The position numbers and the translations under genes were made by a program. The notes under the pieces were generated by a model. That model saw nothing but the letters and a program-made list of their open reading frames with translations, ran no database searches and was not told the origin of the DNA. This document shows, piece by piece, positions 3,200 through 64,000 of a DNA stretch of 64,000 nt. How positions within the stretch are numbered: position 1 is the stretch's first letter; each line of letters opens with the position of its first letter. The DNA lies in contig CAWFZW010000004.1 of the NCBI GenBank assembly GCA_963820485.1, forward strand, positions 61,743-125,742. The letters run 5' to 3'. This stretch comes from Candidatus Nealsonbacteria bacterium (GTDB lineage: Bacteria; Patescibacteriota; Minisyncoccia; Minisyncoccales; JBGOYX01).

Positions 3200-3238
3200 A
3201 TTTTTATTAATTATATTTAGTAGATGACCTTTTCTTCT

Positions 3239-3280
3239 ATTCTACCAAAAAACCGCCCTCTTGAGAAAGTGGCCGAAATC
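3239..3280 (-). repeat. junction module copy E
   Basis: Minus strand reads GCCGATTTCGGCCACTTTCTCAAGAGGGCGGTTTTTTGGTAGAAT. Confidence 0.65.
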
Positions 3281-3307
3281 GGCTCCGGAGGTAGGATTCG
3301 AACCTCT
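3281..3307 (-). other. tRNA 3'-end fragment (T-loop + 3' acceptor strand only), candidate att-type remnant
   Basis: Minus strand reads AGAGGTTCGAATCCTACCTCCGGAGCC. GGTTCGAATCC is the canonical T-arm signature. No D-arm or anticodon arm precedes it, because the nrdG stop is 7 nt upstream. Confidence 0.6.
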
Positions 3308-13594: not shown

Positions 13595-13615
13595 TTATTT
13601 TAGTGAATTTGTCAA
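13587..13615 (-). promoter_or_regulatory. divergent minus-strand promoter (TTGACA-17-TATAAT) overlapping the mfd -10
   Basis: Plus-strand attata at 13587-13592 and tgtcaa at 13610-13615. Confidence 0.5.
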
Positions 13616-27476: not shown

Positions 27477-28778
27477 TTGATTATGGCAAATAGTTTTCTT
27501 ATTAAAGGAGGCTTTCCTCTTTCAGGAGAGGTTGAAATTTCTGGCTATAAAAATTCAGCTGGCGCAATTTTGGCGGCTGTTTTGCTTTCCGAAGAACCAT
27601 CTATTATTGATAATCTGCCTCAAGTCACCGATGTTTTGGACCAAATTGAAATTTTAAAACAGATGGGTGCAGAAGTTGAATGGCAGGGAAAAAGAAAATT
27701 AAAAATAAATACAAAAAATATAAATCCTGAAAAAATTCCTATTAATCTTTTTGAGAAAATGAGGGTATCGGTACTATTTATCGGCCCCTTGGCCATCAGG
27801 TTTAAAAAGTTCAAAGTTCCCCATCCCGGCGGGGATAAAATCGGTTTAAGGCCGATTGTTACTCATCTGGAAGCTCTTGAAAATTTCGGCATAAAAACCG
27901 AAGAAAAAGACGGCTTCTATCATTTCCAAGCTCCCGAAAAACTGGAAGGTAAAAAAGTGGTTCTAAAAGAGTTCTCTGTAACCGCCACTGAAATTATAAT
28001 GATGCTGGCGAGCCGGGCTGCAGGAATTACTAAAATTGAAATTGCCGCCGCCGAACCCCAAGTTCAGGATTTGGGATTTTTTTTAAGAAAAATGGGGGCA
28101 AAGATAGAAGGAATCGGCACCCACACCATTAAAATTGAGGGAAAGGAGAAATTAGGCGGCGCCGAATTTTCTTTGTGTCCAGATTTACTGGAAGCCGGAA
28201 CGTTTTTTATAGCTTTAGCGCTGACCGGCGGAGAAGGCAGAATAAAAAACATAAATCCCGACCACCTCACATTTTTTCTGGGGAAGATGAAAGAAATGGG
28301 AGTAAATTTTGACATCTTAGACAACCCCAAAGGAATTCCTTTGGAATCCTACGGAACAAGTGAAATTTTAGTTAAGAAATCTAATGATTTTAAGCCAGCC
28401 AAAATTCAAGTCCTTCCTTATCCCGGATTTCCGACCGACTTGCAGCCCCAAACATCAGTTTTATTAACACAAGCTCAAGGAAAATCTTTAATCCACGACC
28501 CTCTATATGAAAATCGCTTCCAGCATTTGCACGAATTAAGAAAATTGGGGGCTGATATTGAAATCACCGACCCTCACCGGGCTTTAATTTTTGGAAAAAC
28601 GGAACTTATCGGGAATAAAATCAACGCCTCAGATATAAGATCGGGCGCAGCTTTAATTTTAGCGGGTTTAATTGCTAATGGCCAAACTACAATTGAAAAT
28701 ATTTCTCAAATTGAACGCGGCCACGAAGAAATTGAGGAAAAATTACGAAAACTCGGAGCACAAATTGAAAAAATATAA
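27477..28778 (+). CDS. murA: UDP-N-acetylglucosamine 1-carboxyvinyltransferase
   Basis: Intact 433 aa (an ATG at 27483 is also possible). EPSP/MurA fold motifs: GAKNSA-like YKNSAGAIL, PGGDKIGLRPI, YPGFPTDLQPQ. Confidence 0.93.
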   Translation: MIMANSFLIKGGFPLSGEVEISGYKNSAGAILAAVLLSEEPSIIDNLPQVTDVLDQIEILKQMGAEVEWQGKRKLKINTKNINPEKIPINLFEKMRVSVLFIGPLAIRFKKFKVPHPGGDKIGLRPIVTHLEALENFGIKTEEKDGFYHFQAPEKLEGKKVVLKEFSVTATEIIMMLASRAAGITKIEIAAAEPQVQDLGFFLRKMGAKIEGIGTHTIKIEGKEKLGGAEFSLCPDLLEAGTFFIALALTGGEGRIKNINPDHLTFFLGKMKEMGVNFDILDNPKGIPLESYGTSEILVKKSNDFKPAKIQVLPYPGFPTDLQPQTSVLLTQAQGKSLIHDPLYENRFQHLHELRKLGADIEITDPHRALIFGKTELIGNKINASDIRSGAALILAGLIANGQTTIENISQIERGHEEIEEKLRKLGAQIEKI

Positions 28779-28782
28779 TTAA

Positions 28783-28807
28783 AAGAGGGCGTCCAAAACG
28801 TCCTCTT
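28783..28807. terminator. bidirectional hairpin between the convergent murA and MetE-like genes
   Basis: AAGAGGGCGT-CCAAA-ACGTCCTCTT. Confidence 0.6.
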
Positions 28808-29510
28808 ACAAACCCAATAGCAACTCTCTTGTGATTTGTTGAAGATTGTGAAATACTGGTTCGCAATCTTCAACCGTATATTCCAACGGGCTCAAGCCGC
28901 ACGGTGGCGTGATCAAATCGCCTTTTTGGAAATCTTTAACATCTTCTCTCTTTTCTATACCCCAAGCAATTTTCTTACCGCCCCTATAATGGAGGTACTT
29001 TGTAATATCGTATTGAGATGCATTGAAACTTATAATTTCAATGGCTTGCGATTGAAAAATGACATCCCAATCCATATTTCCGCAGCAATGCACGCCTGGT
29101 ATTACTGAGAAACTCTTGAATATCGGCGTCCATAAGTCCTCAAAATTAAATCCTGCTTGGCCCAGACCGGGTTCGTCTAAGATAAGAATAATTTCCTTTG
29201 CTTTAAGGGGCTCCATAATTAAGGAAATATATTTTACTATCTTTCCCACTGCCTCATCTTCGCTGTAGCCACGCATAACTAATGTTGCTGGTCCGGGAGC
29301 CTGAATTTTTACGGTAGTAAATTCGTTTTTGCAGAATTCGGATAAACAACTTGGGCAAATGAGTTCCTTAATCCAATCCAGCATGAATCCATCCAGCTTC
29401 GGAAGTTCTGGTAAAAAAGGTTTACCATGTCTCAAGCTATACTTTACGGCTTGTTTTATCTTTTTAAAGGGCAATGAGCCAATTTGAGTAATTGGTAATA
29501 TATCCTGCAT
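28806..29510 (-). CDS. MetE-like (cobalamin-independent methionine synthase / UROD-like fold) zinc protein; G+C-rich inserted gene
   Basis: 234 aa. SD GAAGGAGGTGA. TQIGSLPF N-terminus, and GVHCCGN and PPCGLS resembling the His/Cys zinc ligands of the MetE family. Confidence 0.55.
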   Translation of the reverse strand: MQDILPITQIGSLPFKKIKQAVKYSLRHGKPFLPELPKLDGFMLDWIKELICPSCLSEFCKNEFTTVKIQAPGPATLVMRGYSEDEAVGKIVKYISLIMEPLKAKEIILILDEPGLGQAGFNFEDLWTPIFKSFSVIPGVHCCGNMDWDVIFQSQAIEIISFNASQYDITKYLHYRGGKKIAWGIEKREDVKDFQKGDLITPPCGLSPLEYTVEDCEPVFHNLQQITRELLLGL

Positions 29511-29582
29511 TATTCACCTCCTTCTTAATTATTAGAGTAGTAATTCTAAAATATGTGATATTAATAAAAAAATCAAGGCCAG

Positions 29583-29645
29583 CGCGGCCACGAAGAAATT
29601 GAGGAAAAATTACGAAAACTCGGCGCCCAAATTGAAAAGATTTAA
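29583..29645 (+). pseudogene. orphan second copy of the last 20 codons + stop of murA
   Basis: 59/63 nt identical to 28716-28778. All 4 differences are synonymous third-position changes, so both copies encode RGHEEIEEKLRKLGAQIEKI*. Confidence 0.85.
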
Positions 29646-29664
29646 ATAAATTAAAATAAAAATT

Positions 29665-31010: not shown

Positions 31011-31032
31011 ATTAAATTGGTGGGTTATTTTT

Positions 31033-32651
31033 TTAATTTATTACGAATTTACAGGGATGTTTGGCAATGATTACCGAAACTTCTTCTTTATCCAAAAAAT
31101 TCTTTAACCGTATGGATAAATTCTTCCTGATTTATCGGGGTCGATTGTTTTTAAATTTTTTACTCCGCAGGCTGAACCAGAGTTTCAATTTCTATTGGCT
31201 CTGCCACGCCGACGGCAGCCGGATGAGGTTGATGACCGGTCATAGCCGTAGTTTCATTATTTAAAATAATAATTAAAGGATTTGATTTGTTGACAACGGC
31301 ATTAATTAAAGCCGGAATTCCCGCGTGAAAAAAAGAACAATCGCCGACAAAAGTAATCAATTTTTGACTGGTGGCTTTCTCAATTCCGTGGGCAATTCCC
31401 ACCGAAGAACCCATACAAGAGAAATAATCCTGCAAATCAACTGGCGAATTGCCAAAAAGCATATAACAGCCAATTTCTCCGCCAAAAATTACTTCCTCAG
31501 GTTAACCGCTTTTTTTATAGCTGAAAAACCAGCCAATAAGGGCATCCGGGGCAGAGTTGAGGAAACGTTTGGCGCGAATTTTTGATTCCGTTTCAATTTA
31601 TAATTTTTGTTAGCGACTTTGCCAATAGCCGAAATGACATTTCGGGTTTTGATTCGCCGACTTCGGCAATAGATTTTTCCCAAAAATTGAAGTTTACGAT
31701 TTACTTCTTTAGCTAAACCTTTTACCCATTGTTCCAAAGATGGCTTCCAGTTCTTCTACAATTAAAACTTTTTTAAGTTTCCTTATAAAATTTTTAGCTT
31801 TTTTATTGGGAGAAGGATAAAAAAACCCGAGCTTCAAAATAGGAAGGTTGAGATTCAACTCTTTTAAATTTCTTCCACATATAGATAAGAGATGGCTGAA
31901 GTTATAATTCCTATTTTTGATTTTTTGCCAATTTCAATCTTATTTATTTTTGTTTTTTCTGAAAACTCTCTTATTTTTTCAATTTTTTCAAACAACTCTT
32001 TTTTCATTTCCAAAACGCGTGGCGGCAAGTCACACATCGTTTGACGTCTTTAATAAATTTTCCTTTATTCTTAATTCCTAATTCATACTCCCCAATTTTT
32101 ACCGGCATTCTCTGATGGGCCACTCTTGTGGTAGTTCTTATCATCACTGGTATTTTAAATTTTTCTGAAATTTGAAAACCTAATTTGATAAAATCTAAAC
32201 ATTCTTGCGGGTCGGATGGCTCTAAAATCGGAATATGAACAAGATTTTTAATGGGTCTCGTATTTTCTTCTGACTGGGCTGAACTGTGACAGGAAGGGTC
32301 GTCAGCAACAATAATCACGGTCGGCCCCTTTGTGCCCGTATAAACAAAAGGAAATAAAGCGTCCAAAGCAACATTCAAGTCCGAAATTTTTCATTGCCAC
32401 TAATGTTTTTAAGCCGGAAAAAGAGGCGCCGATGCTAGCTTCCAAAGCTACTTTTTCATTGGTGGAAAATTCAAAATAAACTCCAGCGTCTTTTGCAATT
32501 TTATAAAAAATATTGCCGATTTCCGAAGCCGGCGTACCAGGATAAGTGGAGATAAAATTGACGCCCGCTTCCAAGGCGCCTCTAACAATAGCTTCATTTC
32601 CCAATAAAATAATTTTTTTATTGGAATTATTTAATGAAGAATATTCTCCAT
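31033..32651 (-). CDS. iorA: indolepyruvate:ferredoxin oxidoreductase alpha subunit (TPP-binding), multiple frameshifts
   Basis: Fragments 32302..32604 (GNEAIVRGALEAGVNFISTYPGTPASEI), 32004..32378 and 31160..31462 (GDCSFFHAGIPALINAV, TAMTGHQ). Confidence 0.75.
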
Positions 32652-32662
32652 ATATATATATT

Positions 32663-34483
<1,821 letters not shown>

Positions 34484-36937: not shown

Positions 36938-37013
36938 ATTGCATTGCTTCAATATTTTTCACTTTATCATAAAAAATCGGCTTTCTCAAGCCGATTTTTT
37001 AATTTTTAATACT

Positions 37014-37899
37014 TTATTCTAAATTAAATAATTTTTTGGCATTTTGGGTGGTAATTTGAGATATTTTTTCAAAACTTTCTTCTTTTAATTCAGCAATCTT
37101 CTGGATTACGTGTTTAATATATAATGGCTCGTTGCGCCCATTTTCTTGTGGAGGTGTAAGATAAGGACAATCTGTTTCAATTAAAATTTTTTCCAAAGGT
37201 ATTTTTTTTATTATTTCATTTGAATTTAGTTTAAAAATTATTCCGTTAAATCCGAGATAAAATCCCATTTCTAAATATTCTTGTGCTTCCTTCAAAATGC
37301 CGACAAAACAGTGCACTACACCGCTGTAAATCTGGCCAATTAAATTCTTTTATCGCGCCAATTAAGTCGTTATGCGCAACTCTGCAATGAAAAATTACCG
37401 GTAAATCCAGTTCTTTCGCCAATTCTAATTGTTTTAAAAAAACTTCTTTTTGCTTTTCTTTAAATTGTTCCAGTTTAATCTTGGTTTTCGGCCGATAATA
37501 GTAATCCAAGCCGATTTCGCCTATTGCTACTACCCGCCTCATCGGCGGGTCGCCGATGAGGCGACTTGTTAATTCCCTGTATTTTTCGTAATCAAATTCT
37601 TCTTCTTTTGTTTTAAATTTTATTTCTTCAGTGCTTGCCCCGTGAATTCCCGAGGGTAACTCTGCGGGGTCTATTTTTGTTTTAAAAATTCCACTTGATA
37701 AATGAATCGGATGAAGACCAACGGCAGCATAAATTCCTTTCTCATATTTTTCTGCAATTTCCACCGCTCTTTTACTTGTTTCATAAGTTGAACCGACATT
37801 TATCATCCAAATATCATTATCCAAAGACCGACGAATCACTTCGTCGGCATTGTCTCTGAAGGCATTAAAATTAAGGTGTGCGTGAGTATCTATTATCAT
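37014..37899 (-). CDS. tatD: TatD-family metal-dependent hydrolase (frameshift near 37250-37320)
   Basis: MIIDTHAHLN, AIGEIGLDYY, and HCRVAH/HCF motifs across fragments 37246..37899 and 37014..37316. Confidence 0.88.
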
Positions 37900-41084: not shown

Positions 41085-42114
41085 TTACAAAACAACTGTT
41101 TTTTCTTCTTGTTTTTTCTTTAAGAAATCCTTTATAAATTCAAATAAAATTCCAAAGAGAGGAATAGCCAAAACCGCTCCTAAAAATCCCCAAAGAGTTC
41201 CGCCGATAGCCAAAGCAACTAAAACTAAAGCTGGCGGCAACCCCACAAATTTTCTGGTTAATATTGGCGTAAGAATATTGCTTTCCAACTGTTGAATCAG
41301 AATAAAAACCAATAAAACAAAAACTGCCTTCCAAAAATTATCAATCAAAACAACAAGAAAAATAATGATTCCGGCAATTAACGGCCCGACTATCGGAACA
41401 AAGTTGGTAACTCCCGCTAATAACCCCAAAGAGAAAGGATATTTAGTATTAAAAAGTAAAAATGTAAGATAGGAAATTAATCCTACAAACAAAGCGCCTA
41501 GAATTCTTGAAAAAAACCAGCCGTTAACTTTAGTTTGGCATCTATGCCAAAGAGAAAGAATATATGCCTCATACTTTTTAGGAAAAAGCAAACTTAAACT
41601 TTTCTCAATCGGTTTTTCTTCCAAAGATAAGAAAAATAGCAATAGTTAAAACAAATATGGTTGAAAATATGCCTCCGAAAATAACAAAAAAGGCATTTAA
41701 AATATTAGTTGCTATTTTTTCAATGTGTCCGCTTAAAAGATTGATAAAATTCTCTAAATTCTCAAAAGCTGGTATCCCCAAACCTCTTAAAGAAGGAGAA
41801 ATTTTCTCAAAATATTGGGGGAAAATCTTGGAAAAATTAGAAATCTCAGAAACAAATACGGAACTGGTTGAATAAATAAAAAGGGAAATTAACCCAAAAA
41901 CAAAAAAGTAGATAAAAATCGTTGCAATTACCCTTGGAACCTTTCTTTTCTGTAAAAAATCAATTGCTGGATTAAATAAAACAGAAATTATTAAAGCGAA
42001 AATAAACCAAACAACGATATCCCGAATTAAATAAAGAATATAAAAACCGAGAACGGCTATGGCTATTTTAAAAATTGATTCCCAAGAAATATCCAATATT
42101 TTTTCTTGACTCAT
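41085..42114 (-). CDS. AI-2E family transporter (PerM/UPF0118), one frameshift near 41620
   Basis: Fragments 41605..42114 and 41085..41642. Multi-TM, with the C-terminal pattern PALVLVALAIGGTLWGFLGAVLAIPL. Confidence 0.8.
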
Positions 42115-42128
42115 AATTTAAACGCTTC

Positions 42129-43431
42129 CTATAAATTATATCGAATGAAGTTCACTATAATTTTAATAATTTTTGAAATTTCTGCTTTTTCTTTAAAAGG
42201 TCCTATCAAAGCTAAATTTAATTTTTTTGGCTGGAAAATTTCTTTCGCTACTTTTAGAATATCATCTTGGCTGACTTTATCAATCTTTTGACATTCTTCT
42301 TCGGGAGTAGAAATTTTATTCTCTAAAATCTCTTGAGAGCCGAGATAAGCCGCCCAAGCATCGGAAGTTTCCAGACCCAATAGAATATGTCCTTTAATAT
42401 TGTCTTTTGCCTTTTGAAGTTCTTCTTTCGGGACCTTTTTTTCTTTGAGTTTTTTATATTCTTTCAAGATAATTTTTATCGCTTCTTCGGTTCTTTTGTT
42501 ATCAATTCCGGCGTGAGTAACTAAATATCCCGTGTCGGTGTAATCTTCAGCCATTGTCCTGATATAATAAGCCATTCCTCTTTTGTCTCTGATTTCAATA
42601 AACAGCCGGGAACTCATAATTCCGCCCAAAAGATTGGAAAGAACGGCTAAGGGATATTTTTTAGGTGAAAAAATATTATAAGCCCTGACGCCCAAAGTTA
42701 AGTGAGTTTGATCTGTTTCTTTTTCCTGGAGCAAAACCTGGGGAGATTTTTGCTTTTCAATGACCGGTTTTTTGGATAGGGTTTTAATTTTTTTAAATTT
42801 CCCGAAAAAATTTTTAATTTTGAGAATTGCTTCTTTTTCTTTAAAATTTCCCGCCAAAACAATAACAACATTCTTTGCTCCTAATTGCGATTTAAAATAA
42901 TTTAAAATATCTTTTCTGGAAATTTTTCTGACCGTTTCTTTTTCTCCGAGCAATTGGCCAGCCCGCCGGCTGATTTCCGTATAAAAGCTCTTCCCAAAGA
43001 TTTAAAATATGGATTTGAGGAGTATCTAAAAACATATTAATTTCTTCAATAATCGCCATTTTTTCTTTTTCTATTTCTTTTTCTTGAAAAAGAGAATTAA
43101 AAATCATATCAGATAAAACATCGCAGGGTAAATCAAAATGTTTTGAATCAACTTTAACCCAAAATCCCATTAATTCTTTACTTGTAAAAGCATTATAAAT
43201 ACCACCCACCTTGTCTAATTCTTTAACAATATCTAAGGTTTGGGGTCTTTTTTTTGTTCCCCGAAAAACAGTATGCTCTATTAAATGGGAAATGCCGTTT
43301 ATTTCCTTTTTTTCATATTTTGAACCGGCGCCAACCAATATTAAAAGAGTAATAGCTTTGGTACTCTCCATCGGAAAAGTAATAATTCTTAATCCATTTT
43401 TAAGAGTAGTTTTACGAAACATTTTTTCCAT
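42129..43431 (-). CDS. M16-family zinc peptidase (insulinase-like), one frameshift near 42920
   Basis: Fragments 42892..43431 (the HLIEHTVFRGT inverted zinc motif HxxEH) and 42129..42953. Confidence 0.85.
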
Positions 43432-43585: not shown

Positions 43586-45882
43586 TTATTTCAATAATCC
43601 CTTTATTTTAGCTATTAAATCTGTTATTAAATCGGTAATCATTTGGACAACAGAAGCCAATTGACTTTCTTTGTTTTGTGGCTCAAAACTACTTCCGCCG
43701 CAATTTGCATCACAGGTCGCTTTAGAATTTGTTATAAAACCATAACCGCCCCAGGCAGCAGCGCAACAATAAGGCGCAGATGACGTTGCGGTATTATATA
43801 AACCACATCTGCAGGGCAGTACGGCATTAGAATATTGGCATGAAGAGTAAGTACAGGTTGGTGTTGGGGTTGAGGTAGGCGTGGGGGTTGGAGTGGCTGT
43901 ACCACAATTTGCATCACAGGTTGTTTTAGAATTTGATGTAATACCACTACCGCCATTACCAGCAGCGCAGCAATAAGGATAAGATGCTGTTGCGGTATTG
44001 GATGAACCGCATTTACAGGGCAGTACGGCATTAGAATATTGGCATGAAGAGTAAGTACAGGTTGGTGTTGGGGTTGGAGTTGGAGTTGGGGTTGGAGTAG
44101 GGGTTGGAGTAGGAGTTGGTGTTGGGGTTGGGGTTGGGGTTGGAGTGGGTGTACCGCAATAAGAATCGCAGGTCGCTTTAGAGTTTGTTACAAAACCATA
44201 ACCGCTCAAATAAGAAGCGCAGCAATAAGGATAAGATGCTGTTGCGGTATTGGATGAACCGCATTTACAGGGCAGTACGGCATTAGAATATTGACATGAA
44301 GAGTAAGTACAGGTTGGGGTTGGGGTTGGGGTTGGGGTAGGGGTAGGGGTTGGTGTTGGAGTGGGTGTTGGAGTGGGTGTTGGGGTTGGGGTTGGCGTTG
44401 GGGTTGGCGTTGGGGTGGGGGTTGGGGTTGGGATTGGAGTTGGAGTGGGGGTTGGAGTTGGGGTGGGGGTGGGGGTAGTAAGATTGAACATAGTCCCAAC
44501 TGAAGTGTCAGAATTTAAAGTTAAGGTACAAATATTATTAGTGCTACCAGAGCAAGCTCCCGACCAACCTGCAAAGATGGAACCAGAAAAAATAGAGGCG
44601 GTTAGAGTAACTTGTGTTCCTTGAGTATAGTTTTCTGAACAATCTGTTCCGCAGTTAATACCTGAAAGAGAACTAGTAATATTGCCGGAACCTGTTCCTA
44701 ATTTTGAAATATTTAAAGTATATGTGGTACCGCCTACAAGATTAAACGCAGCTCCAACTGAAGTATTGGAATTTAAAGTCAGAGTGCAGGTGCTGGTACC
44801 GGAGCAAGCTCCTGACCAGCCAGTAAAGGTGGAACCTGCGGCCGGAGAAGCGGTAAGAGTAATTTGAGTTCCTTGGTTGTAATCTTCAGTACAATCTGTG
44901 CCGCAGTTAATACCAGAGGGGGAAGAAGTAACTGTTCCTGAACCTGTGCCTGATTTGGAGAGAGTTAAGGTATAGCTTGTGGGTAGTAGTAAGATTAAAG
45001 GCAGCTCCGACTGAAATATTAGAATTCAAAGTAATAGTACAGGTAGTTTTAGTACCCGAGCAAGCTCCTGACCAGCCTGCAAAAGTGGAACCTGTGGTTG
45101 GAGTGGCGGTTAAGAGTAATTTTAGTACCAGAAACAAATTTAATACTGCAAGTGCTTCCGCAGTTAATACCAGAAGGAGAACTATTAATAGTTCCAGAAC
45201 CTGTGCCTGATTTGGAAATCGTAACGGTTTTTGAGTTGTTGGGTTGGTGTTGAAGAGGGTTTAGGTGTCGCTGTCGGAGTTGGAGATGAAGGTGTGATGT
45301 TGGAGTTGGAGTAATTACGGGGGAAAGGTTGGTGTGGGTTCGGGGGTAAGTGATGGAGTGATTGTTGGCATTGTAAAACCTTTGCTTCCGGGTTGATTAA
45401 GATTAGAAACACAATACTCTTGTTTGGTTCTTTCTAATTTATTAGCGCAAATTTTCCAGGAACAACCTTTTGTCTGCTTGACAAATATTAAAACCTTCGC
45501 CATTGTCTGGTTCAAAATAATAATAGTAAGGATTGCGATCTATGGGGTCAATCGGAAGTTTGGCAATCAAGTCTGGCAGTAAAACTCTTAAATCCGTCCT
45601 GTCGCACCAATTATCCCCATCAGGCAGGGTTTGATCATCACTGCACCCCATACTGGTGTCAAAATAATGATTTTCTTCGGGATATTTATCGTATACTGAC
45701 CAATACGTTTCCAAAGCGTCGGCTATTTGTTTTACATCTGCTTCTCTTTTTGCGTCTCTCTTTTTTTCATTAATAGATTTGAGATTCATAAAAACTATGG
45801 TACCCAAAACAGCAACAGCTATTAACACCCAAACCACGCTTAACCCTTTTTGTTTCAACACAGTTGTTGTTGAAATTTTCAT
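43586..45882 (-). CDS. mosaic surface protein: pseudopilin-like N-terminus + Pro/Thr linkers + 3 InlB-type B-repeat domains + 3 eight-Cys modules (several frameshifts)
   Basis: Fragments 45442..45882 (hydrophobic N-terminus, then [27 protein letters not shown] as in GspG/pilins), 45315..45515, 45185..45412, 44907..45137 ([38 protein letters not shown]) and 43586..44491 (TP repeats; [18 protein letters not shown]...YCCA...CDxxCG three times). Confidence 0.7.
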
Positions 45883-47256: not shown

Positions 47257-48963
47257 TTATTCCTCACCCGTCGGGCTGGATTTTAAAGAAGTATCAATTG
47301 CCGGAACCGTACTTTCTATTAGAGTTGAAGCCCAATTGTCTTCGGCTGTGATTGTGGCTTGCCCTACAAGCTGAAAAATCTGATTACCTTGAGAAAAATC
47401 AGGAGTAATGGCAACTTGAAAAGTAACCTTTGGAGCTGAGTTTAAAATTCCCGCCCCGACTCCCAAATCCCCAATTTCCCAAACGATTTCTCTTGACTGG
47501 GAGTCAAAAGTTAGTCTTGAATCTTCCGGGATGATTTTGCCGGTTAATTTAACTTGCGACGGCAAAACGGCTTTCACTTTTACATCTTTTAAATCGTTAT
47601 AATAATTATTAACTTCCCAAACTATTGCGTAAGTGGTGGTCTGGCCGACTTGGGGAGGAATTGGTCCTATATTTTCAAAGCCATCCAGTTGGGCATATCC
47701 TTTTTGAGAAATTTCCAATTTTGAGTTTATTTTAGTTGTAAATTCTTCCTGAACTTGGGATATATAAACCCTATTTTTAATAACCGGATTTCTATCTTGT
47801 GAGCCGGTAAATGATAAATTATTTTTTAATTTTACCCAAAAATCAATCTTTCCCTCTTCTTGAGGAAGCAAAAGCTGAAGCTTTGAAACTCTTTTCCAGT
47901 CAAAAACGACCGAATTATCTCCCGCATTAAAGTCTCCCAGTTCGGACTTTAAACTTTCCAAATCAAAAGCTGCTCCATCCAAAGTTGCCACTAAAAACAA
48001 ATAATCGGACTTTAAACTTTCTAAATCAAAGGCTGCTCCGTCCAAAGTTGCCACTAAAAATAAATTTGTCATAGCTTCCTGACTAAGGTTTTTAAAGAAA
48101 ATTTCATAATGAAGATTATCTCCCAGATTGGCGACGTATTGAGGATTTCCGTTAATCATTTGGGAAATAAAAATGTTAGGCTGGGCGATTTCTACTCCCT
48201 TGGTTGTGTCTTTTAATAAAATAAATTCTCCATTCTGTAAAACACCCAAACTTGCTCTAAAAATTTTCTGTCCTCCTACGTCTCCCCTAAGAATACCTGA
48301 AATTTCAATTCTTCCTCCCTCGGCTTTATTTAAAAGGGGGATTTCCCACTCGGTTTTATCCAAAGCAGTAGGGTTGGAATCAATAAATTCAAAGTCAGAA
48401 GGATAATCGATTTTTACTCTCAAGTTGGAAAGAGGATAATTTGCATTTGAAAAATAATTTAACTTAAAATTGGTCGTTTTACCGGATTCTATTTTTGAAG
48501 GAATATCAAACTCAAAGGTGATGGGAACTTTTTTAATAATTGTGGTGAAGGTGGTGGTTACTTCATAACGAGCACTTAAGTTTTTTGGCTTAAAATTCAA
48601 CCAAGCTTTGGCTTCTTTGGTTTCATTTTCTTTTCCAAATAGTCTTGCTTTAAAAGAATAAGTTTTTTCTTGACCGGGATAAATGGGTTCTAATACGATT
48701 TCTTTTCTTAAAAAACTTTCCCCCTCCACAATTGAATATTTTGGATATTCAAAAATAAGCTTTGGCTCTTCTAATTTAAAATTGCCGTTGTTTTTATATT
48801 TAACAATGTATTCAACCTCCTCGCCAAGGTCTGTTTCATTGGGTCCTAAAATTTCCAATTTCAAAACTGATTTTGAATAGACGTTTCTTTGGTAATACCA
48901 AAAACCCAAAACTCCCAAAATTACCGCAAAAATTATAAGAAAAAAAATGATTTTTTTACGCAT
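47257..48963 (-). CDS. large membrane-anchored hypothetical surface protein with an internal 21-aa tandem duplication
   Basis: Intact 568 aa. N-terminal TM (IIFFLIIFAVILGVLGFWYY). Beta-rich repeats. Duplicated LFLVATLDGAAFDLESLKS. Confidence 0.75.
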   Translation of the reverse strand: MRKKIIFFLIIFAVILGVLGFWYYQRNVYSKSVLKLEILGPNETDLGEEVEYIVKYKNNGNFKLEEPKLIFEYPKYSIVEGESFLRKEIVLEPIYPGQEKTYSFKARLFGKENETKEAKAWLNFKPKNLSARYEVTTTFTTIIKKVPITFEFDIPSKIESGKTTNFKLNYFSNANYPLSNLRVKIDYPSDFEFIDSNPTALDKTEWEIPLLNKAEGGRIEISGILRGDVGGQKIFRASLGVLQNGEFILLKDTTKGVEIAQPNIFISQMINGNPQYVANLGDNLHYEIFFKNLSQEAMTNLFLVATLDGAAFDLESLKSDYLFLVATLDGAAFDLESLKSELGDFNAGDNSVVFDWKRVSKLQLLLPQEEGKIDFWVKLKNNLSFTGSQDRNPVIKNRVYISQVQEEFTTKINSKLEISQKGYAQLDGFENIGPIPPQVGQTTTYAIVWEVNNYYNDLKDVKVKAVLPSQVKLTGKIIPEDSRLTFDSQSREIVWEIGDLGVGAGILNSAPKVTFQVAITPDFSQGNQIFQLVGQATITAEDNWASTLIESTVPAIDTSLKSSPTGEE

Positions 48964-49105: not shown

Positions 49106-49772
49106 TCAGTCGGAATTAACCTTTAGTTTTTTCGCGGTTTGCCAGTCCTTTTTAAGGAAAATTCTGATAATTTTGATTGTTTCTTGCTCAATTTTTTTAC
49201 CCTGCTTGTTTTTATCTAAAACAAGAAGCACAAATTACTCCTCCTTCTTCCGGGTCAAAGTATAGGTTTCCAGCGGCCAATTTCTTTTGGCAAATGGAAC
49301 ATTTGTATAATTCGGGTTCATATCCAAGAATGGAAAGAAAATTCCAAAGGAAATAATAATATAGTAATTGTAAGTTATAGATTGTAAATTGGAGATTATT
49401 TAGTTTGTCAAAAGTTTCATCAAGTAAATTCCACAACTTTTCGTCTCTCTCTTGGCCTTTAACTAATTCATCAAAAACTTCGGAAATTTTAGAGGCGATT
49501 TTTAATTTCCTTAAATTTTTTCTTATATTTTCAAATTTTTCAATTAAAATGGCGTCGGTTAAGGTTTTGTGAGTTTTTCCCTGAATGAATTCAATGTCCG
49601 ACAAATAGAAAATATCTATCCCCGATCTTAATTTTGAAGAAATTTTCCGAATCGCTTTTCCTAAAATTTCCAATTTTCCGAATCTTTTTGTATAAATCGT
49701 AAATAACTGGTTGCTTTCGCCCCGGTTTTCTTTTTTCAAAACAAAACCCTGACTCCTGTAATGAACGAACAT
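49106..49772 (-). CDS. recO: DNA repair protein RecO (frameshift near 49215)
   Basis: ORF 49212..49772 (OB-fold N-terminus, CSICQKKL...VICASC zinc motif). C-terminal 35 aa recovered in another frame, ending at 49106. Confidence 0.8.
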
Positions 49773-56716: not shown

Positions 56717-57167
56717 ATGAAGGTATTAGCTGAGAATAAAAAGGCATATTTTAATTATGAAATCCTGGAGAAGTTTGAAGCAGGGATTTCTTTGATTGGA
56801 CAGGAAGTAAAATCAATTAAAACCAAAGGGGTAAATTTAGCCGGTTCTTATGTGGTTGTAAAAGATGAAGAGGTTTTTTGGATTGGGGCAAGAATTCCTC
56901 CTTATCAGCCAAAAAATGCGCCCCCTGATTATCAACCGGAGAGGTCGCGGAAACTTCTTTTGAGAAAATCAGAAATTAAATATTTAATCGGAAAATCCCA
57001 GCAAAAAGGCTTGACTTTGATACCTTTGAAAGGTGTATAATAAAAATGGTAAAATCAAATTTGAGTTTGGAATAGCAAAAGGAAAAAAGGAATTTAATAA
57101 AAAAGAGTTAATTAAAAAAAGGGAGACAGAAAGAGAAATTAAAAGAGAATTAAATTTACGGGGATGA
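56717..57167 (+). CDS. smpB: SsrA-binding protein SmpB (frameshift near 57035)
   Basis: ORF 56717..57040 (KAYFNYEILEKFEAGISLIGQEVKS, RSRKLLLRKSEI). The C-terminal tail KIKFEFGIAKGKKEFNKKE... is in another frame and stops at 57165-57167. Confidence 0.88.
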
Positions 57168-57507
57168 AAAAGAATCGATGAAAGATCTTTATAAAATATG
57201 CAGGCTGAGTTTACTAGAATCTCAAAAAACTTCTGGTAAAAAGAATAAATGCCAATTTATTCAAACAACCCGCTTTAGCTTACGTCTAAAGCCATCTAAT
57301 TTAGTGATTCTCGATAGCTAAAATTAGGTGTCATATTATCGAGATAGATGGTTCTTTTGTCTCGCGAACTTATCAAAGCAACAGAGACAATTAGTACTAG
57401 AGCTTTTTTCTGTTTCTAATCTAGTATTTCAAAGTTAAACAGAATAATCCTGTAGAATTATTTTAAAAAGACTTTCAGATGTGGGAGCATCACCCACCAT
57501 CTCCACC
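57160..57507 (+). ncRNA. ssrA: tmRNA (SsrA)
   Basis: 5' GGGGATG pairs with 3' CATCTCC, including the G3-U pair. T-arm GTGGG-AGCATCA-CCCAC. Discriminator A + CC. Candidate tag frame GCC AAT TTA TTC AAA CAA CCC GCT TTA GCT TAC GTC TAA (ANLFKQPALAYV) at about 57251-57289. Lies next to smpB. Confidence 0.85.
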
Positions 57508-57508
57508 G

Positions 57509-60249: not shown

Positions 60250-61982
60250 TTATTTAAAAAATTTTAACATTTTCTCTAATGGCCAGCAATTTATTATATC
60301 TTCTTTTTCCGCCCAGCCTCTTCTCGCTTGAGCAATACCAAACTCCATAAAACGCATTTGGTCTTTATGATGAGAGTCTGTGTTTATTATCATTTTTACT
60401 CCAACTTCTTTTGCCCGACGGATATTTTGGTCATTCAAATCTAATCTTTCTGGCCAAGCGCTTATCTCCAAAATAGTTCCCGTTTCTTTTGCTACTCTTA
60501 AAATTTTATCAAAATCTATTTGATATTCGTCTCTTCTTTTCAAGATTCTGCCAGTTGGATGGGAAATTATGTCCACATTGGGATTTTTCATTGCTTTTAT
60601 TATTCTTTCTGTCATTTTTTCACGAGGCATTTTAAAACTTGAGTGGATTCCAGCAATAACAAAATCTAATTTTTTCAGTGTTTCGTCATTAATATCAATT
60701 GAGCCATCGTTTAAAATATTCGTTTCAGCTCCTTTAAGAATGCGGAAATTCAATCCGCCGACCGGCAGATTGAATTTTTCATTTAATTTATCTATTTCTT
60801 TGTTCCGCTGGATAATTCTTTTTTCGTCTAAACCGTGTTCAATTCTCAAAAATTTCGTATGGTCGGCAATTCCCAACATATTCATACCTCATTTTTAATC
60901 GCAGCTTTCGCCATATCTACAATTGAATTTGCTCCCCCGTCCCAATCCGAATGACAATGTAAATCTCCTTTAATATCGCCGTAATCAATAATTTTAGGAA
61001 GTTTATGTTTTAAAGCGACTTCAATTTCTCCTTGATTTTCTCTCATTTCCGGCGGCGGGCACTGCATTCCAAGAGCTCTGTAAATTCCTTCTTCATTCTC
61101 GCCAGCTATCATTCTTGCTCCTCGAAAAAGACCGTATTCTGAAAGTTTTAAACCCTTATCAATGGCAATTTTTCTCAAAGCGATATTGTGTTCTTTTGAA
61201 CCTGTGAAATATTGCAAAGCTGCTCCGTAAGATTTTTTAGGCAAAACCCTGATATCCATATCAAATCCCTCTCTCATTCTGATAGAAGCTTTTGTGCTTC
61301 CCTTGCCCCAAATTTTTTCTATACCCGGCAAAGAAGTGAAAAAATCCATTACTTTTTCCGGTTTTTTTGAAATGACCAAAAGGTCAACATCGCCAATTGT
61401 TTCTTTCATTCGTCTTACAGAGCCCGCTGTTGAGATTTCTTCTACTTCTTTTAAACTTTTTAATTTTTCAAAAACTTCTTTAACGATTGGTAAAATCTCT
61501 CCCAATAAAAATCTTCCTTTTGACCTTTTCAAAAATTCAATTCCTTCTAAAATATTTTTTTCAGTTTTTTCGCCAAAACCGAATAAAGGGGCGATTTTGT
61601 GGGTTTTAGCTGCTTTTTCCAAGGTTTTTAAATCCCTGATGCCCAATTTTTGATAAAGAATTTTGACTTTTTTGGGACCCATTCCTTCAACCCTTATTAA
61701 TTCATCCAATTTCAAGGGAAGCCGTTTTTTAAATTGCTCATAGTATTTTATCTTGCCGGTTTTTATATATTCTTCAATTTTTTCGGCAATACTTTTTCCT
61801 ACGCCGGGAATTCCTTCTAATTTTTTAATTCCTCCTTTTTTGTAAATATCCTCAACATCTTCTTCTAAGGTTTCCAAATTAATAGCTGCTTTTTCATAAG
61901 CATAAGGTTTAAAAGCCACCTCTTCCATTTCAAGAAAAGAGGCAATTTCGTAAAATATCTTAGCTATTTCTTGATTCTTCAT
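60250..61982 (-). CDS. polX: family X DNA polymerase with C-terminal PHP domain (frameshift near 60885)
   Basis: Fragments 60882..61982 (HhH motifs GIPGVGKSIAEKI and GMGPKKV; catalytic GDVDLLV) and 60250..60885 (PHP histidinol-phosphatase-like domain). Confidence 0.88.
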
Positions 61983-61991
61983 AGAAAAATT

Positions 61992-62393
61992 TTATTCTAC
62001 TATTTTTATGATTATCTCTCTTTCTCTTGGTTGATTATCAAAATCAATAAGAACGATTTGTTGCCAAGTACCCAAAACTAATTTTCCATTTTCAATGGGA
62101 ACAGTCAGAGAAGGCTTCATTAAAGCCGCTCTGATATGGGCATAACCGTTACAATCTCCCCACTTTTTACAATGCTCATAATTCTCATTCATTGGAGCTA
62201 CAATTTCCAAGGCTCTTTTTAAATCTTTGATGGCTCCTTCTTCATATTCAATTGTGGTTAGAGCACAGGTTGAATGGGCGACAAAAATTAAACAAACCCC
62301 TTCATCAACTTTTGATTTTTCCACTTCTTTTTCTACTTGATGAGTAATATCAACAACATCTGTAAATCCCTTAGTATGAATTGAAAATCTCAT
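61992..62393 (-). CDS. yjbQ: YjbQ/UPF0047 family protein (secondary thiamine-phosphate synthase-like)
   Basis: 133 aa with a family-typical pattern (HSTCALTTIEYEEG, NGYAHIRAALM, GTWQQIVLIDFD). Module copy G has TAAGAT 7 nt before the ATG. Confidence 0.8.
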   Translation of the reverse strand: MRFSIHTKGFTDVVDITHQVEKEVEKSKVDEGVCLIFVAHSTCALTTIEYEEGAIKDLKRALEIVAPMNENYEHCKKWGDCNGYAHIRAALMKPSLTVPIENGKLVLGTWQQIVLIDFDNQPREREIIIKIVE

Positions 62394-62400
62394 ATATTTT

Positions 62401-62473
62401 ATCTTACCAAAAAACCGCCTTTAGGCGATTTTTTGTTCGGCAGGTCGTGTCTAGCGGACGATGTTAGAACCTG
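62401..62473 (-). repeat. junction module copy G
   Basis: Minus strand reads AACAGGTTCTAACATCGTCCGCTAGACACGACCTGCCGAACAAAAAATCGCCTAAAGGCGGTTTTTTGGTAAGAT. The first 12 nt are the last codons (N R F stop) of ORF 62464..62895. Confidence 0.7.
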
Positions 62474-62895
62474 TTTAGTAATAAAACAATAAAATTTACC
62501 ACTAAAAAAGATAAAATGGAAAAAATAAGTAAAATAATTATACCAGAAAGTGTTGAAATCGGTTTATTCCAATGGAAGCGTGGATAAAAACAAGAAACAA
62601 AAGCAATAATTGCGGTAAGTCCAAATAAAAATAATGATTGAATAACAGCATCGGTATCATAATTAAAAATCTTTAAAAAATACCAACCCTCATTTAAAAT
62701 AAATATCCCATTTACAAACCAACTAACTCTATCTCCAATGGTTGGATTTTCTTTAACAAATACCAAACCATCTTTAATAAAAATTCCGGGAAGTCTCTTT
62801 CCTAAAGCTAAATAAAACAAACTTATGTATAAACCAATTGGAGTTAAATAAAGTAATCTTATAATTAAATTTACGAAAATATCTATTAATTTCAT
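62464..62895 (-). CDS. hypothetical integral membrane protein (cassette ORF)
   Basis: 143 aa, 4 hydrophobic segments. Module copy H has TAAAAT 6 nt before the ATG. Confidence 0.6.
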   Translation of the reverse strand: MKLIDIFVNLIIRLLYLTPIGLYISLFYLALGKRLPGIFIKDGLVFVKENPTIGDRVSWFVNGIFILNEGWYFLKIFNYDTDAVIQSLFLFGLTAIIAFVSCFYPRFHWNKPISTLSGIIILLIFSILSFLVVNFIVLLLNRF

Positions 62896-62901
62896 TTTTT
62901 C

Positions 62902-62936
62902 ATTTTACCAAAAAACCGCCTGATTGGCGATTTTTT
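62902..62936 (-). repeat. junction module copy H
   Basis: Minus strand reads AAAAAATCGCCAATCAGGCGGTTTTTTGGTAAAAT. Confidence 0.7.
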
Positions 62937-62958
62937 GTTTACAATTACTCGCTGAATT

Positions 62959-63414
62959 TTATATACCAACATTTTGCTGAATTTGGCTTTCGGTTTTTTC
63001 GGTATTTTGGATATATTTTTTACTAATAATATAGAATAGAAAGGCTGCAATAATAAATCCGACGAAAGAATATACAAGAGCTATACCGGTTGCTTTTCCT
63101 ATAAGAATATTGAGTAAAATATATCCTCCATTTAGAACAACAAGATATGTTGTTGCTAAATTTATAATCTTATCTTTATTTTCAATAATATAAGTTTTCT
63201 TAAGGTAATTTGCAGAATAAATTGTTCCAAGCCAAATGGATAGAATCCTTATCACTAATAAAAATACCATTATTAAAAGTGATGACCCAAGTTTAATTAA
63301 CGGTAATAAAATAAAAGTTGCGACAAGACCTATTATAAATGGTATCGCAAAGCCAGCTGTTAGATAATGGGTCGCTGCAATATACCAATTAGATGATTTC
63401 TTTTTTTCTTTCAT
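62959..63414 (-). CDS. hypothetical integral membrane protein (cassette ORF)
   Basis: 151 aa, 4 hydrophobic segments. Module copy I is 45 nt upstream. Confidence 0.6.
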   Translation of the reverse strand: MKEKKKSSNWYIAATHYLTAGFAIPFIIGLVATFILLPLIKLGSSLLIMVFLLVIRILSIWLGTIYSANYLKKTYIIENKDKIINLATTYLVVLNGGYILLNILIGKATGIALVYSFVGFIIAAFLFYIISKKYIQNTEKTESQIQQNVGI

Positions 63415-63459
63415 TTTATGTAAATGTGATCATCTTAATAATTAACCGACCTTTACATA

Positions 63460-63490
63460 ATCCTACCAAAAAACCGCCTTCTTGGCGATT
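63460..63490 (-). repeat. junction module copy I
   Basis: Minus strand reads AATCGCCAAGAAGGCGGTTTTTTGGTAGGAT. Confidence 0.7.
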
Positions 63491-63615
63491 AAACCCTTAC
63501 TTCCAACTCAAACTTTGGCTAATTCCCTTCTCCCCTCCCAAACTTTTTTACTTACCTCGCTTCTTGAAAGTAGTTCTACTTTTGTAAACACCCTGAATGA
63601 TTCTTCTTTACAACC

Positions 63616-63644
63616 AATCCCTTAGTGTGAATTGAAAATCTCAT
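63616..63644 (-). pseudogene. orphan second copy of the first 29 nt of yjbQ
   Basis: ATGAGATTTTCAATTCACACTAAGGGATT versus ATGAGATTTTCAATTCATACTAAGGGATT at 62393-62365 (28/29). Lies 10 nt downstream of the UPF0104 gene stop. Confidence 0.8.
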
Positions 63645-63654
63645 GGCTTGAAAT

Positions 63655-64000
63655 TTAATGAAAGTTTTCTTCAGAATGATAAATTTTTGTAAAATTGTCT
63701 ATCTTTTTAAAAAGCATGTTTTTGATTATCTTAACTCCGAAATGGAATAAAATCACCACTCCAAACAAAGCTATAAATAATTCAGCCCCCCTGATAATCA
63801 TAGTAAAAGCGGTGGCGGTAGGAAGCCCCAATTTAAGAGAATTAAAGGCGAAAGTTTGAATTGCTTCATGAGAGCCTAAGGCCGTTGGGATAGGAATCAT
63901 TGATGCTAAATAAGTAAAACCTAATATAGATAAAGCAGGTAACCACCCGATATTTTTTCCTAAAAAAAGTATTAAAAACCAACCCCTCAAATACATTACG
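63655..64000 (-). CDS. UPF0104 / flippase-like (lysylphosphatidylglycerol synthase TM region) membrane protein, C-terminal part (5' end outside the window)
   Basis: ORF open to the window end. ASMIPIPTALGSHEAIQTFAF and IIRGAELF patterns typical of the family. Confidence 0.65.
   Translation of the reverse strand, partial: VMYLRGWFLILFLGKNIGWLPALSILGFTYLASMIPIPTALGSHEAIQTFAFNSLKLGLPTATAFTMIIRGAELFIALFGVVILFHFGVKIIKNMLFKKIDNFTKIYHSEENFH

Follow-up and report, generated by a model that had tools for sequence, protein, structure and literature searches.

Why does the start of the housekeeping gene yjbQ occur twice, on either side of a 1.25-kb block, in a Candidatus Nealsonbacteria genome? The question arises from a 64,000-nucleotide (nt) stretch of contig CAWFZW010000004.1 (assembly GCA_963820485.1), hereafter the window; coordinates without a locus label refer to it, and relatives are designated by labels such as L001. 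An original prediction, made from the letters of the window, held that small genes had been inserted here by recombination at a core of about 29 bp. The comparisons described below show an insertion with empty and alternatively filled alleles. The two repeats could be the junctions of a mobile cassette island without an integrase of its own, which would recombine through the 29-nt core and rebuild yjbQ, while its cassettes would turn over at short terminator/promoter modules; we give this reading an even chance of being right.

The start of yjbQ occurs twice in the window

The 29-mer ATGAGATTTTCAATTCA(Y)ACTAAGGGATT is present in exactly two copies in the window, both on the minus strand (62365-62393 and 63616-63644), and 100 dinucleotide-preserving shuffles gave 0.00 expected chance matches. 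The copies are identical at 28 of 29 positions, the sole difference (CAT or CAC) being synonymous, and the repeat has sharp edges on both sides. As predicted, the upstream copy begins 10 nt past the stop codon of a UPF0104 membrane-protein gene, which is the conserved left neighbour of the site, and the downstream copy opens an intact yjbQ open reading frame (ORF). The bracketed 1.25 kb has the announced contents, namely two small hydrophobic-protein ORFs and three module copies (I, H and G). The features of the site are as follows, in the direction of transcription.

63655..63999, minus strand: UPF0104/LPG_synthase_TM gene, 3' part, running off the window (Pfam PF03706, E=4e-6)
63616..63644, minus strand: upstream 29-nt copy, pseudo-start of yjbQ, attL-like; spacing to UPF0104 as in the empty site of L001
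63494..63615, minus strand: putative left arm of the island, 122 nt, starting with GGTTGTAAAG; a 35-codon frame and a tail of about 17 nt
63511-63615, minus strand: 35-codon reading frame of the left arm, GCKEESFRVFTKVELLSRSEVSKKVWEGRRELAKV and a stop, no start codon
63460..63490, minus strand: module I, hairpin AATCGCC-AAGAA-GGCGGTT, T-run, extended -10 TGGTAGGAT
62959..63414, minus strand: cassette gene 1, 151 amino acids, predicted multi-pass membrane protein
62902..62936, minus strand: module H, A6, TCGCC-AATCA-GGCGG, T6, GG-TAAAAT; ATG 6 nt on
62464..62895, minus strand: cassette gene 2, 143 amino acids, predicted membrane protein
62441..62475, minus strand: boundary motif resembling a tRNA 3' end (D9), AACAGGTTCTAACATCGTCCGCTAGACACGACCTG, overlapping the stop codon of cassette gene 2
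62401..62434, minus strand: module G, A6, TCGCC-TAAA-GGCGG, T6, GG-TAAGAT; yjbQ ATG 7 nt on
62365..62393, minus strand: downstream 29-nt copy, real yjbQ start, attR-like, island-linked N-terminal allele MRFSIHTKG
61992..62393, minus strand: yjbQ (UPF0047), intact (Pfam E=4e-38; 95% amino-acid identity to L001)

The position of module G agrees with the claim that it now serves yjbQ, for which it would act as a leaderless promoter. Module H was listed as sigma70-like (TCGCCA, 17 nt, TAAAAT, with TG). Module I was scored as terminator-like and belongs to a long-leader subclass with AAAGGTCG downstream; the L159 module is the same but for an additional tRNA-like segment of 69 nt. Neither cassette gene matched a family in a Pfam search of the window ORFs. 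Cassette gene 2 has only four homologues (56-63% identity), one of which, in L148, follows another upstream gene and is again bounded by a D9 motif, a hairpin and GGTAAAAT. Exact-match look-ups of the window YjbQ and cassette gene 2 proteins found neither on record. The similarity of the 29-mer to the tRNA-like motif (AGATTTTCAATTC against AGATTTGAATC) was too weak for any claim.

Empty and alternatively filled sites in relatives

The proposed insertion of the intervening 1.25 kb was borne out by relatives, for which a YjbQ protein scan, with one genome per species, gave 26 loci. The closest relative is a Candidatus Paceibacteria metagenome-assembled genome (MAG; L001), whose YjbQ is 95% identical and whose flanks show a silent divergence (dS) of 0.06-0.085. 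The gene order UPF0104-yjbQ-polX-PHP-GNAT is common to L001 and the window, and in L001 the UPF0104 stop is followed by 10 nt and the yjbQ ATG, which is the empty site that had been predicted. UPF0104 also adjoins yjbQ, with the site likewise empty, in seven remoter relatives (L002-L005, L007, L008 and L161).

The variable alleles that had been expected exist as well. A DUF4760 gene stands at the site in L152 and another gene in L159, and the occupied lineages (the window, L152-L157 and L159/L160) have in common the junction ...GGATT followed directly by GGTTGTAAAG, with three different gene contents. Their left contexts differ: a 10-nt spacer in the window, a TAATG overlap in L152 and a 52-nt spacer in L159. 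The point at which gene content switches between lineages lies directly past the -10 box. At least nine independently assembled contigs (JGI, ENA and Logan samples) contain the shared junction. At the 3' end of UPF0104, nucleotide identity to the window is 96% for L001, 89.5% for L159, 82.5% for L152 and about 75% for the empty outgroups. The occupied alleles are listed below; P-type denotes the yjbQ start allele MRFSIHTKG and B-type the common allele M(K/R)F(N/T/K/R)(I/L)STKGF.

Window: 10-nt spacer and 29-nt P-type copy; left arm of 122 nt; two membrane-protein genes; D9 motif, module G, yjbQ
L152-L157, left side (YjbQ 86% identical): 18-nt B-type remnant TGTTCCGACAAAAGGATT; left arm 92% identical to that of the window
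L152-L157, cargo: tRNA-like fragment, TTGACA promoter, DUF4760 gene, terminator
L152-L157, right end: AACAAGTTCTAACGTCGTCC... D9 motif (L152 4921-4955), module G homologue, yjbQ
L159/L160, left side: 52 nt and intact B-type pseudo-start ATGAAGTTTACTATTTTCACAAAAGGACTA; same left arm
L159/L160, cargo: tRNA-like fragment, module, aminotransferase-like gene; the contig ends at the right

On the other side of yjbQ, a gene for an MFS-like membrane protein of about 213 amino acids lies between yjbQ and polX in L002-L005, L007, L008, L010, L012 and L161. It is absent from the window, L001 and L152, a lineage-specific gene loss beside the insertion site. In L002-L012, yjbQ and polX are a further 650-1600 bp apart; an additional cassette was considered here and rejected, as this DNA holds the conserved MFS-like gene, which the window lineage has lost.

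Alleles of the yjbQ start and arms of the island

Among 120 homologues, the N-terminus MRFSIHTKG was found in the window and the L152 lineage only, the other 118 all being B-type; that of L001 reads MRFTISIKG. The fragments left behind beside UPF0104 in L152 and L159 are host-like (B-type), the one in L159 being identical to the real L001 yjbQ start at 23 of 27 positions. From the GGCGG 3' arm of module G through nt 26 of yjbQ, the window and L152 are identical at 52 of 52 positions, which may partly be functional constraint on a promoter and leaderless 5' end; the next 3.2 kb are 81% identical. The 28/29 identity of the two window copies is taken, from the sequence, as a sign of a recent event in that lineage.

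The left arm, which came to light in L159/L160 when its 35-codon frame served as the query of a protein search, is 92-94% identical in L152 and L159/L160 and has the same junction to the yjbQ 5' remnant. Its silent divergence compares with that of the flanks as follows.

Window against L152: left-arm dS 0.21, flank dS 0.74-1.41
L152 against L159: left-arm dS 0.15, flank dS 1.02
Window against L159: left-arm dS 0.28, flank dS 0.47

Binomial tails calculated by hand from about 22 silent sites were about 0.002 for the window and L152 and about 0.0002 for L152 and L159. Judged by silent divergence, the left end of the island is shown to be younger than the host backbone. Between the window and L152, the frame is scored as 35/35 identical amino acids, with four synonymous changes and one non-synonymous change; its dN/dS (non-synonymous to synonymous divergence) of about 0.06 is that of coding-like evolution.

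The left arm was located in four places.

Window 63494-63615, minus strand
L152 4219-4345
L159 1589-1715
L158 3631-3745

In all three occupied lineages the frame is in frame with the upstream UPF0104 ORF, across one or two TAA stops. The L158 copy is solitary, with a terminator on either side, and the copies have no start codon in common. Two interpretations of the left arm were rejected: a structured RNA, for which RNAalifold support was weak and the single-sequence score was z=+0.85 against shuffled sequences, and the 3' end of a larger gene, for which only two small ORFs (47 and 57 amino acids) and no full-length gene were found. A protein search for a full-length donor gene of the truncated frame found none among 5.8 billion proteins.

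The terminator/promoter module and its boundary motif

The modules of the island belong to a family of 188 distinct copies with the consensus AAAAA-TCGCC-AAnAA-GGCGG-TTTTTT-GG-TAGAAT. An A-run is followed by a hairpin, T6 and TGGTAGAAT; the -35-like TCGCCA lies 17 nt upstream of TAGAAT, and TG precedes TAGAAT. The 5' arm is complementary to GGCGG in 174 of the 188 copies (with a 5-nt loop in 114 of them), and the start codon lies 6-9 nt past the -10 box in 88 of 148 downstream ORFs. On this evidence the module is a putative composite of an intrinsic-terminator-like hairpin and a -35-like/extended -10 promoter for leaderless genes.

The 19-mer GGCGGTTTTYTGGTARAAT occurs in at least 120 metagenome stretches and one viral contig. 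Genes driven by modules are diverse, with 154 Pfam families among 148 proteins; methyltransferases, HAD, HD, GNAT, NUDIX and EamA are the commonest. Among the families common to at least two of these proteins, no recombinase family was found in the top 25 of 154. The window holds nine module copies, only at three variable sites (after an nrdG-like gene, at POR-gamma-like/murA and at UPF0104/yjbQ). The core genes of the window have canonical TTGACA-17-TAnAAT leaderless promoters, and the idea that the module is the generic promoter of the organism was rejected for this reason.

A T-loop-like motif, resembling the 3' end of a tRNA, lies 40-60 nt upstream of the module core in 74 of 192 copies. 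Some of these boundary motifs are true tRNA 3' ends (tRNA-Asn in L121, tRNA-Gln in L086 and L118, and others). More often the motif is degenerate, with a slightly longer consensus AACAGGTTCTAACATCGTCC-N6-8-GGAGC; D9 is our repeat-family label for it. A complete tRNA precedes only 7 of 150 modules, and the tRNAs are of six kinds (Glu, Gln, His, Asn, Asp and Gly); one specific tRNA as array anchor was rejected on these grounds. The tmRNA and tRNA-Leu of the window were rejected as sources of the tRNA-like fragment, as their 3' ends do not match. At the gathering threshold, Rfam gave tmRNA and tRNA-Leu only for the whole window and nothing for the module, D9 or the left arm; in an E-value search of 62300-63700, no match fell below E=0.14.

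About 20 pairs of modules have 60-660 nt in common downstream from the module and are unrelated upstream, and about nine pairs show the converse. The most recent pair (L041/L050) has 661 nt of 98.9% identity starting exactly at GGCGG; identity extends to the tRNA-like GGAGC in L070/L124 and to the 5' arm of the hairpin in L108/L117. From these alignments the modules are read as junctions of reshuffled DNA.

Several variants of these elements were noticed. At 275-376 (minus strand), a pair of D9 motifs spaced 79 nt apart encloses no ORF; this 'empty cassette' forms a stretch of about 110 nt that is 82-88% conserved in L054, L074, L076 and L090. Some D9 copies (1497-1555 on the minus strand, L113 at about 4781 on the minus strand, and L131 8866-8901) hold a hairpin of about 30 nt, CCCCAGTAGAACAGC-GAAG-GCTGTCTACGGGG, between GGTTCTAAC and CATCGTCC; D9 seems, from these copies, to consist of two halves that tolerate an inserted stem-loop. 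In the long-leader subclass, AAAGGTCG is conserved about 10 nt after the -10 box (3228-3240, 1436-1445 and 63445-63455, minus strand). It also follows a canonical promoter in L094 (11335-11345) and may be a lineage-wide 5'-untranslated-region or start-site element. A 20-mer of D9 is present in one viral contig, L167 (IMGVR_UViG_3300009529_003397), where at 14600-14819 an AT-rich end with a terminator and a perfect D9 (...CCCGGAGCC) directly abuts DNA of 52% G+C. This boundary might mark where a larger element joins a tRNA-like site, or the contig might be chimeric; the neighbouring 5 kb showed no integrase. A 15-mer search of viral contigs was too unspecific for use.

The murA and nrdG sites

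A duplication at the end of murA had been named as the same signature as that of yjbQ. It proved real and has the same topology, with copies identical at 63 of 68 positions and 867 nt apart.

28716..28783, plus strand: genuine murA 3' end, first copy of the 68-nt direct repeat
28784..29582: insert, with a terminator hairpin and ORF 28806..29510 (minus strand)
28806..29510, minus strand: ORF of the insert, 234 amino acids, no Pfam hit, own Shine-Dalgarno sequence, no module
29583..29650, plus strand: displaced murA 3' fragment, copy 2, with the ancestral right-hand context (hairpin and reverse-complemented D9 of a convergent HAD cassette)

Four of the five differences between the copies lie in the coding part, and all four are synonymous. 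Since the coding differences between repeat copies are all synonymous in both genes (one of one in yjbQ, four of four in murA), the copies would be two alleles that evolved as working genes and not a filled-in target duplication. The displaced fragment has GGCGCC in common with the relative L129. Both the duplication and the 234-amino-acid ORF are absent from L036 and L129, and in L036 the murA site holds different cassettes with the same boundary elements.

The third site follows the nrdG-like gene.

3281..3307, minus strand: fragment resembling a tRNA 3' end, AGGTTCGAATCCTACCTCCGGAGCC, 13 nt after the nrdG-like stop
3228-3272, 2192-2217, 1436-1461, 866-910 and 184-228: modules of the nrdG site

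The fragment at 3281-3307, which is the first boundary of this third cassette array, had been grouped with the duplicated gene ends. It is indeed tRNA-like, matching 21 of 23 nt of the 3' end of the real tRNA-Asn in L121; it does not duplicate the end of any neighbouring gene and represents the generic motif found at 74 of 192 modules. A search of about 150 loci for repeats of gene termini that bracket cassettes gave further candidates, for example L103 1599-1636/5277-5314 and L048 311-335/940-964.

How the island may have entered

In the reading that we prefer, the island would consist of a conserved left arm, variable single-gene cassettes and a conserved right arm, the last made up of the tRNA-3'-like motif, module G and a copy of the yjbQ start (26-29 nt) that belongs to the island. 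By recombination of this copy (attP-like) with the resident yjbQ start (attB-like), the island would come to lie between UPF0104 and yjbQ. Beside UPF0104, the resident start would remain as a dead fragment, and yjbQ would be rebuilt with a start and a leaderless promoter supplied by the island. The crossover point would be the right end of the 29-mer. The incoming intermediate may have been circular or linear, and a circular form would join ...GGTAAGATAAAATAT-29mer-GGTTGTAAAG. The 68-nt repeat of murA would record the same event at a 3' end. Cassettes would be gained or replaced by recombination within the terminator/promoter modules of about 35-90 nt. The idea of insertion at the 29-bp core is kept here for the island as a whole, which the core bounds; it does not hold for single cassettes, which, given conserved ends and differing content, were probably swapped inside the island at the modules. 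As the agent, we infer a trans-acting site-specific recombinase in preference to RecA acting on short homology after natural transformation.

Several observations weigh against this reading. The prediction that the enzyme is not encoded in the window was right, as no integrase, recombinase or transposase domain was found in its 64 ORFs. A XerD probe, which served as a screen only, matched one of 1533 ORFs in the window and about 150 module loci; this match lay outside the window and was unlinked to a module, and linkage of modules to a tyrosine recombinase was rejected. The breakpoints of recently recombined module pairs are scattered, from the tRNA-like fragment to the 3' arm of the hairpin, which fits homology-driven exchange better than a fixed crossover. 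A single ancient insertion is equally parsimonious, as UPF0104 identity groups L001 with the occupied lineages in one clade; one old insertion and one loss in L001 would give a shared junction without site specificity. The junction common to the window, L152 and L159 comes with different left contexts and pseudo-copy alleles, and may go back to one ancestral event. The small number of silent sites in the left-arm test and the possible constraint on the 52 identical nt also count here. Finally, the upstream copy of the window is the island-type allele, against the host type in L152 and L159, so that both this reading and the one considered next need an extra recombination between two island-type cores in the window lineage; for the present reading this could be a previous round of excision and re-integration, or a conversion.

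The alternative that survives best is a one-off scar of homology-facilitated illegitimate recombination after transformation, left in a common ancestor of L152, L159, L001 and the window and followed by vertical inheritance; we consider it rather unlikely. DNA of a related donor with a cassette array upstream of yjbQ would have recombined by homology within yjbQ at one end and been joined illegitimately after nt 29 at the other. The duplication would be a by-product, L001 would have lost the island by deletion between the repeats, and modules would exchange cassettes by ordinary homologous recombination with no site-specific enzyme. The single clade of occupied lineages and L001 with empty outgroups agrees with this, and so does the L001 yjbQ start, which is like the L159 pseudo-copy, as expected from deletion between repeats. 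One edge of each repeat is a gene boundary (the yjbQ ATG, the murA stop) and the other edge is intragenic, a pattern expected if donor and recipient have the gene, but not its neighbour, in common. The left arm resembles a truncated coding sequence, and there may be microhomology, G(R)GATT, between its junction and the stand-alone L158 copy. The scattered module breakpoints suit this account, and so does the lack of a recombinase in the window ORFs and of one linked to a module in the XerD screen of about 150 loci. The window encodes a DprA that is truncated or split and a RecO (16240-16896 and 49215-49772), which makes transformation followed by homologous or illegitimate recombination a viable route; in the relative L094, a ComEC-like gene follows the nrdG region.

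What the scar does not readily explain is the state of the alleles. In the window both copies are island-type, with 28/29 identity, whereas the orthologous pseudo-copies of L152 and L159 carry the host-type allele. Point mutation cannot account for seven changes within 29 nt after the split from L001 (dS about 0.07), and conversion across a 29-mer with 22/29 identity is unlikely. Strict vertical co-inheritance also does not predict a left end whose silent divergence is 3-7 times below that of the flanks in the L152 comparisons (about 1.7 times for the window against L159), and the protein search found no full-length donor gene for the truncated frame.

A tandem duplication of the yjbQ start by slippage or unequal crossing-over, of 29 nt or of a longer, eroded segment, with cassettes filling the gap later, is improbable. 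It would account for the direct orientation of the repeats and their intact flanks, and for a site region that accepts different cassettes. The two copies are, however, different alleles in L152 and L159 (host-like against island-type), the segment to the right of the upstream copy is conserved and foreign and not yjbQ, and murA has the same topology with synonymous differences only. Least probable of all is a transposable element with a target-site duplication made by staggered cuts 29 nt apart, or a misassembly at a short repeat: flanking direct repeats and the many split essential genes of an error-prone, probably long-read, assembly speak for it, but the window has no transposase, a reading of the island ends brought no terminal inverted repeats to notice (a dedicated search for them was not made), the duplications differ in length (29 against 68 nt) and far exceed known target-site duplications, the copy differences are synonymous, the pseudo-copies of relatives are a different allele from the real copy, the same junction recurs in the at least nine independent contigs, and indel errors do not create a 1.25-kb insertion.

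Comparison with known systems

Compared feature by feature, the island is not a member of the integrons, tycheposons or insertion sequences (IS), and its way of working appears, by analogy, closest to an e14-type replacement of a gene end joined to an array like those of integrons. In Escherichia coli, e14 carries an alternative icd 3' end and leaves an icdC fragment; the e14/icd copies differ mainly by synonymous or conservative changes, and excision recombines them (PMC13626634). As with e14 and phage 21 at icd, the insert here lies in a housekeeping gene, brings a replacement gene end, keeps the gene intact and leaves the native end as a fragment on the far side. Direct repeats flank the insert and one of them completes the target gene (29 nt in yjbQ, 68 nt in murA), and the target is uninterrupted in relatives (L001 and the seven others). 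The 68-nt repeat of murA is a close match, and yjbQ is its mirror image at a 5' end. Unlike e14 and phage 21, the window has no integrase, excisionase or phage genes, and the inserts are cargo only, of 0.8-1.25 kb. The yjbQ island must also supply a promoter, as it does with module G, and its interior is a variable cassette array.

Like integrons and clusters of attC sites lacking an integrase (CALIN), the arrays consist of single-gene cassettes in one orientation, separated by short, recombination-prone elements with conserved ends and a variable middle. Array content differs between close relatives, and in many cases the boundary motif lies across the stop codon or behind it. The lack of a nearby integrase is also CALIN-like, and the arrays may be in such a state. 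In contrast to integrons, no intI was found, and no tyrosine recombinase lies in the window or beside the arrays in about 150 loci. An attC site is an imperfect palindrome with R'' (RYYYAAC), R' (GTTRRRY) and extrahelical bases. The sole conserved hairpin of the module is a short perfect stem of 5 bp rich in G+C (TCGCC-N5-GGCGG) followed by T6. Its left motif GTTCTAAC resembles R'', whereas the right end is the invariant extended -10 TGGTAGAAT and not GTTRRRY. Left variants such as GGTTCGAAC and AGTTCTAAT come without a compensating change at the right, as judged by reading the copy listings and without a covariation test. Every cassette also has its own -35-like/extended -10 promoter 6-9 nt from the start codon, and the arrays lie at several chromosomal sites beside gene termini, unlike those of integrons.

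Prochlorococcus tycheposons carry a tyrosine recombinase and usually replication genes and are kilobases long (10.1101/2020.12.28.424599). The likeness lies in a streamlined genome without classical mobile elements, with flexible genes in few islands (10.1101/2020.12.28.424599), in partial tRNA 3' ends scattered in the islands as integration remnants, and in cargo made of plug-in units. Here, by contrast, the units are single genes, and neither a tyrosine recombinase nor a replication module was found within them. The tRNA-like motif is mostly degenerate and 5 nt longer (AACAGGTTCTAACATCGTCC..GGAGC) and is not a copy of a neighbouring tRNA. In L121, a tRNA-Asn is followed by four modules, one of them with a tRNA-like fragment; the window arrays follow protein genes and have tRNA-like fragments only.

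Correia elements of Neisseria and, in enterobacteria, repetitive extragenic palindromes and bacterial interspersed mosaic elements (REP/BIME) are intergenic repeats that bear promoters or terminators, and 'minimal mobile elements' are exchanged by transformation. The module is like them in being a short and highly conserved intergenic hairpin repeat that would combine terminator and promoter and offer portable homology for the reshuffling of neighbouring genes in a naturally transformable host. Unlike Correia elements, it has no terminal inverted repeats or TA duplication. Its orientation is strictly tied to the flanking genes, and tRNA-like fragments and duplicated gene termini accompany it, in which it differs from Correia elements and REP/BIME. 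A transposon or IS would have a transposase, terminal inverted repeats and a target duplication of constant, short length. The window has no transposase, and the repeats measure 29 and 68 nt, with synonymous differences and, in relatives, different alleles. The searchable literature yielded no account of the module or of arrays of this kind in Patescibacteria.

A candidate cassette system

Patescibacteria, also known as the candidate phyla radiation (CPR), have tiny genomes. To our knowledge they are not known for many classical mobile elements, and the exchange of their accessory genes is poorly understood. Taken together, the data allow a tentative proposal, which falls short of an even chance: the Paceibacteria may have a gene-cassette system of their own, made of self-promoted leaderless single genes with a composite boundary element of 35-90 nt. 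In this joint proposal the boundary would comprise a tRNA-3'-end mimic, a terminator hairpin doubling as the -35 and an extended -10. Cassettes would sit at a few hot spots, including the ends of housekeeping genes, which would be rebuilt by the incoming DNA. They would be moved in trans by an unlinked recombinase acting on the tRNA-like motif and gene-terminus cores, or by transformation via the modules.

If this proposal is correct, an integron-like solution evolved independently in ultra-small, streamlined genomes. The yjbQ locus offers a case, resolved to the nucleotide, of insertion into a housekeeping gene without disruption, with empty, occupied and alternatively occupied alleles, and the boundary element is compact and recurs in the at least 120 metagenome stretches. 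A real cassette system would explain strain-level variation of gene content in Paceibacteria. It would make the module and the tRNA-like motif a signature for flexible genes in MAGs, and would provide a natural, very short terminator and leaderless-promoter part.

Assembly quality and other features of the window

Genes for NrdD, a UvrB/Mfd-like protein, FolD, TsaD, a POR/ior-like protein, LeuRS, MetRS, TatD, an AI-2E transporter, an M16 peptidase and polX are split into at least two adjacent ORFs in the window. Split-gene positions are as follows.

4035-5798
13603-14946
20007-20788
22242-23161
30589-33365
34492-36952
37017-37899
41088-42114
42132-43431
60253-61982

Relatives have single ORFs for these genes, for example a polX of 574 amino acids in L152. 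The splits are probably indel errors of an unpolished long-read assembly and not real pseudogenes, and exact homopolymer lengths, such as that of T6, may be off as a result.

A 252-nt repeat block with long runs of the 6-mer GTTGGN, C-rich on the minus strand, occupies 43653-45231. Its minus-strand ORFs (for example 43589..44491) had no Pfam hit and probably encode a repetitive surface protein. A 63-nt tandem duplication with 93% identity (47942-48065) lies inside a DUF11-containing ORF of 568 amino acids (47260..48963). The tmRNA gene (57160-57508, plus strand; Rfam 81 bits), whose 3' end is unlike the tRNA-like boundary fragments, stands directly downstream of smpB (56717-57037, plus strand).

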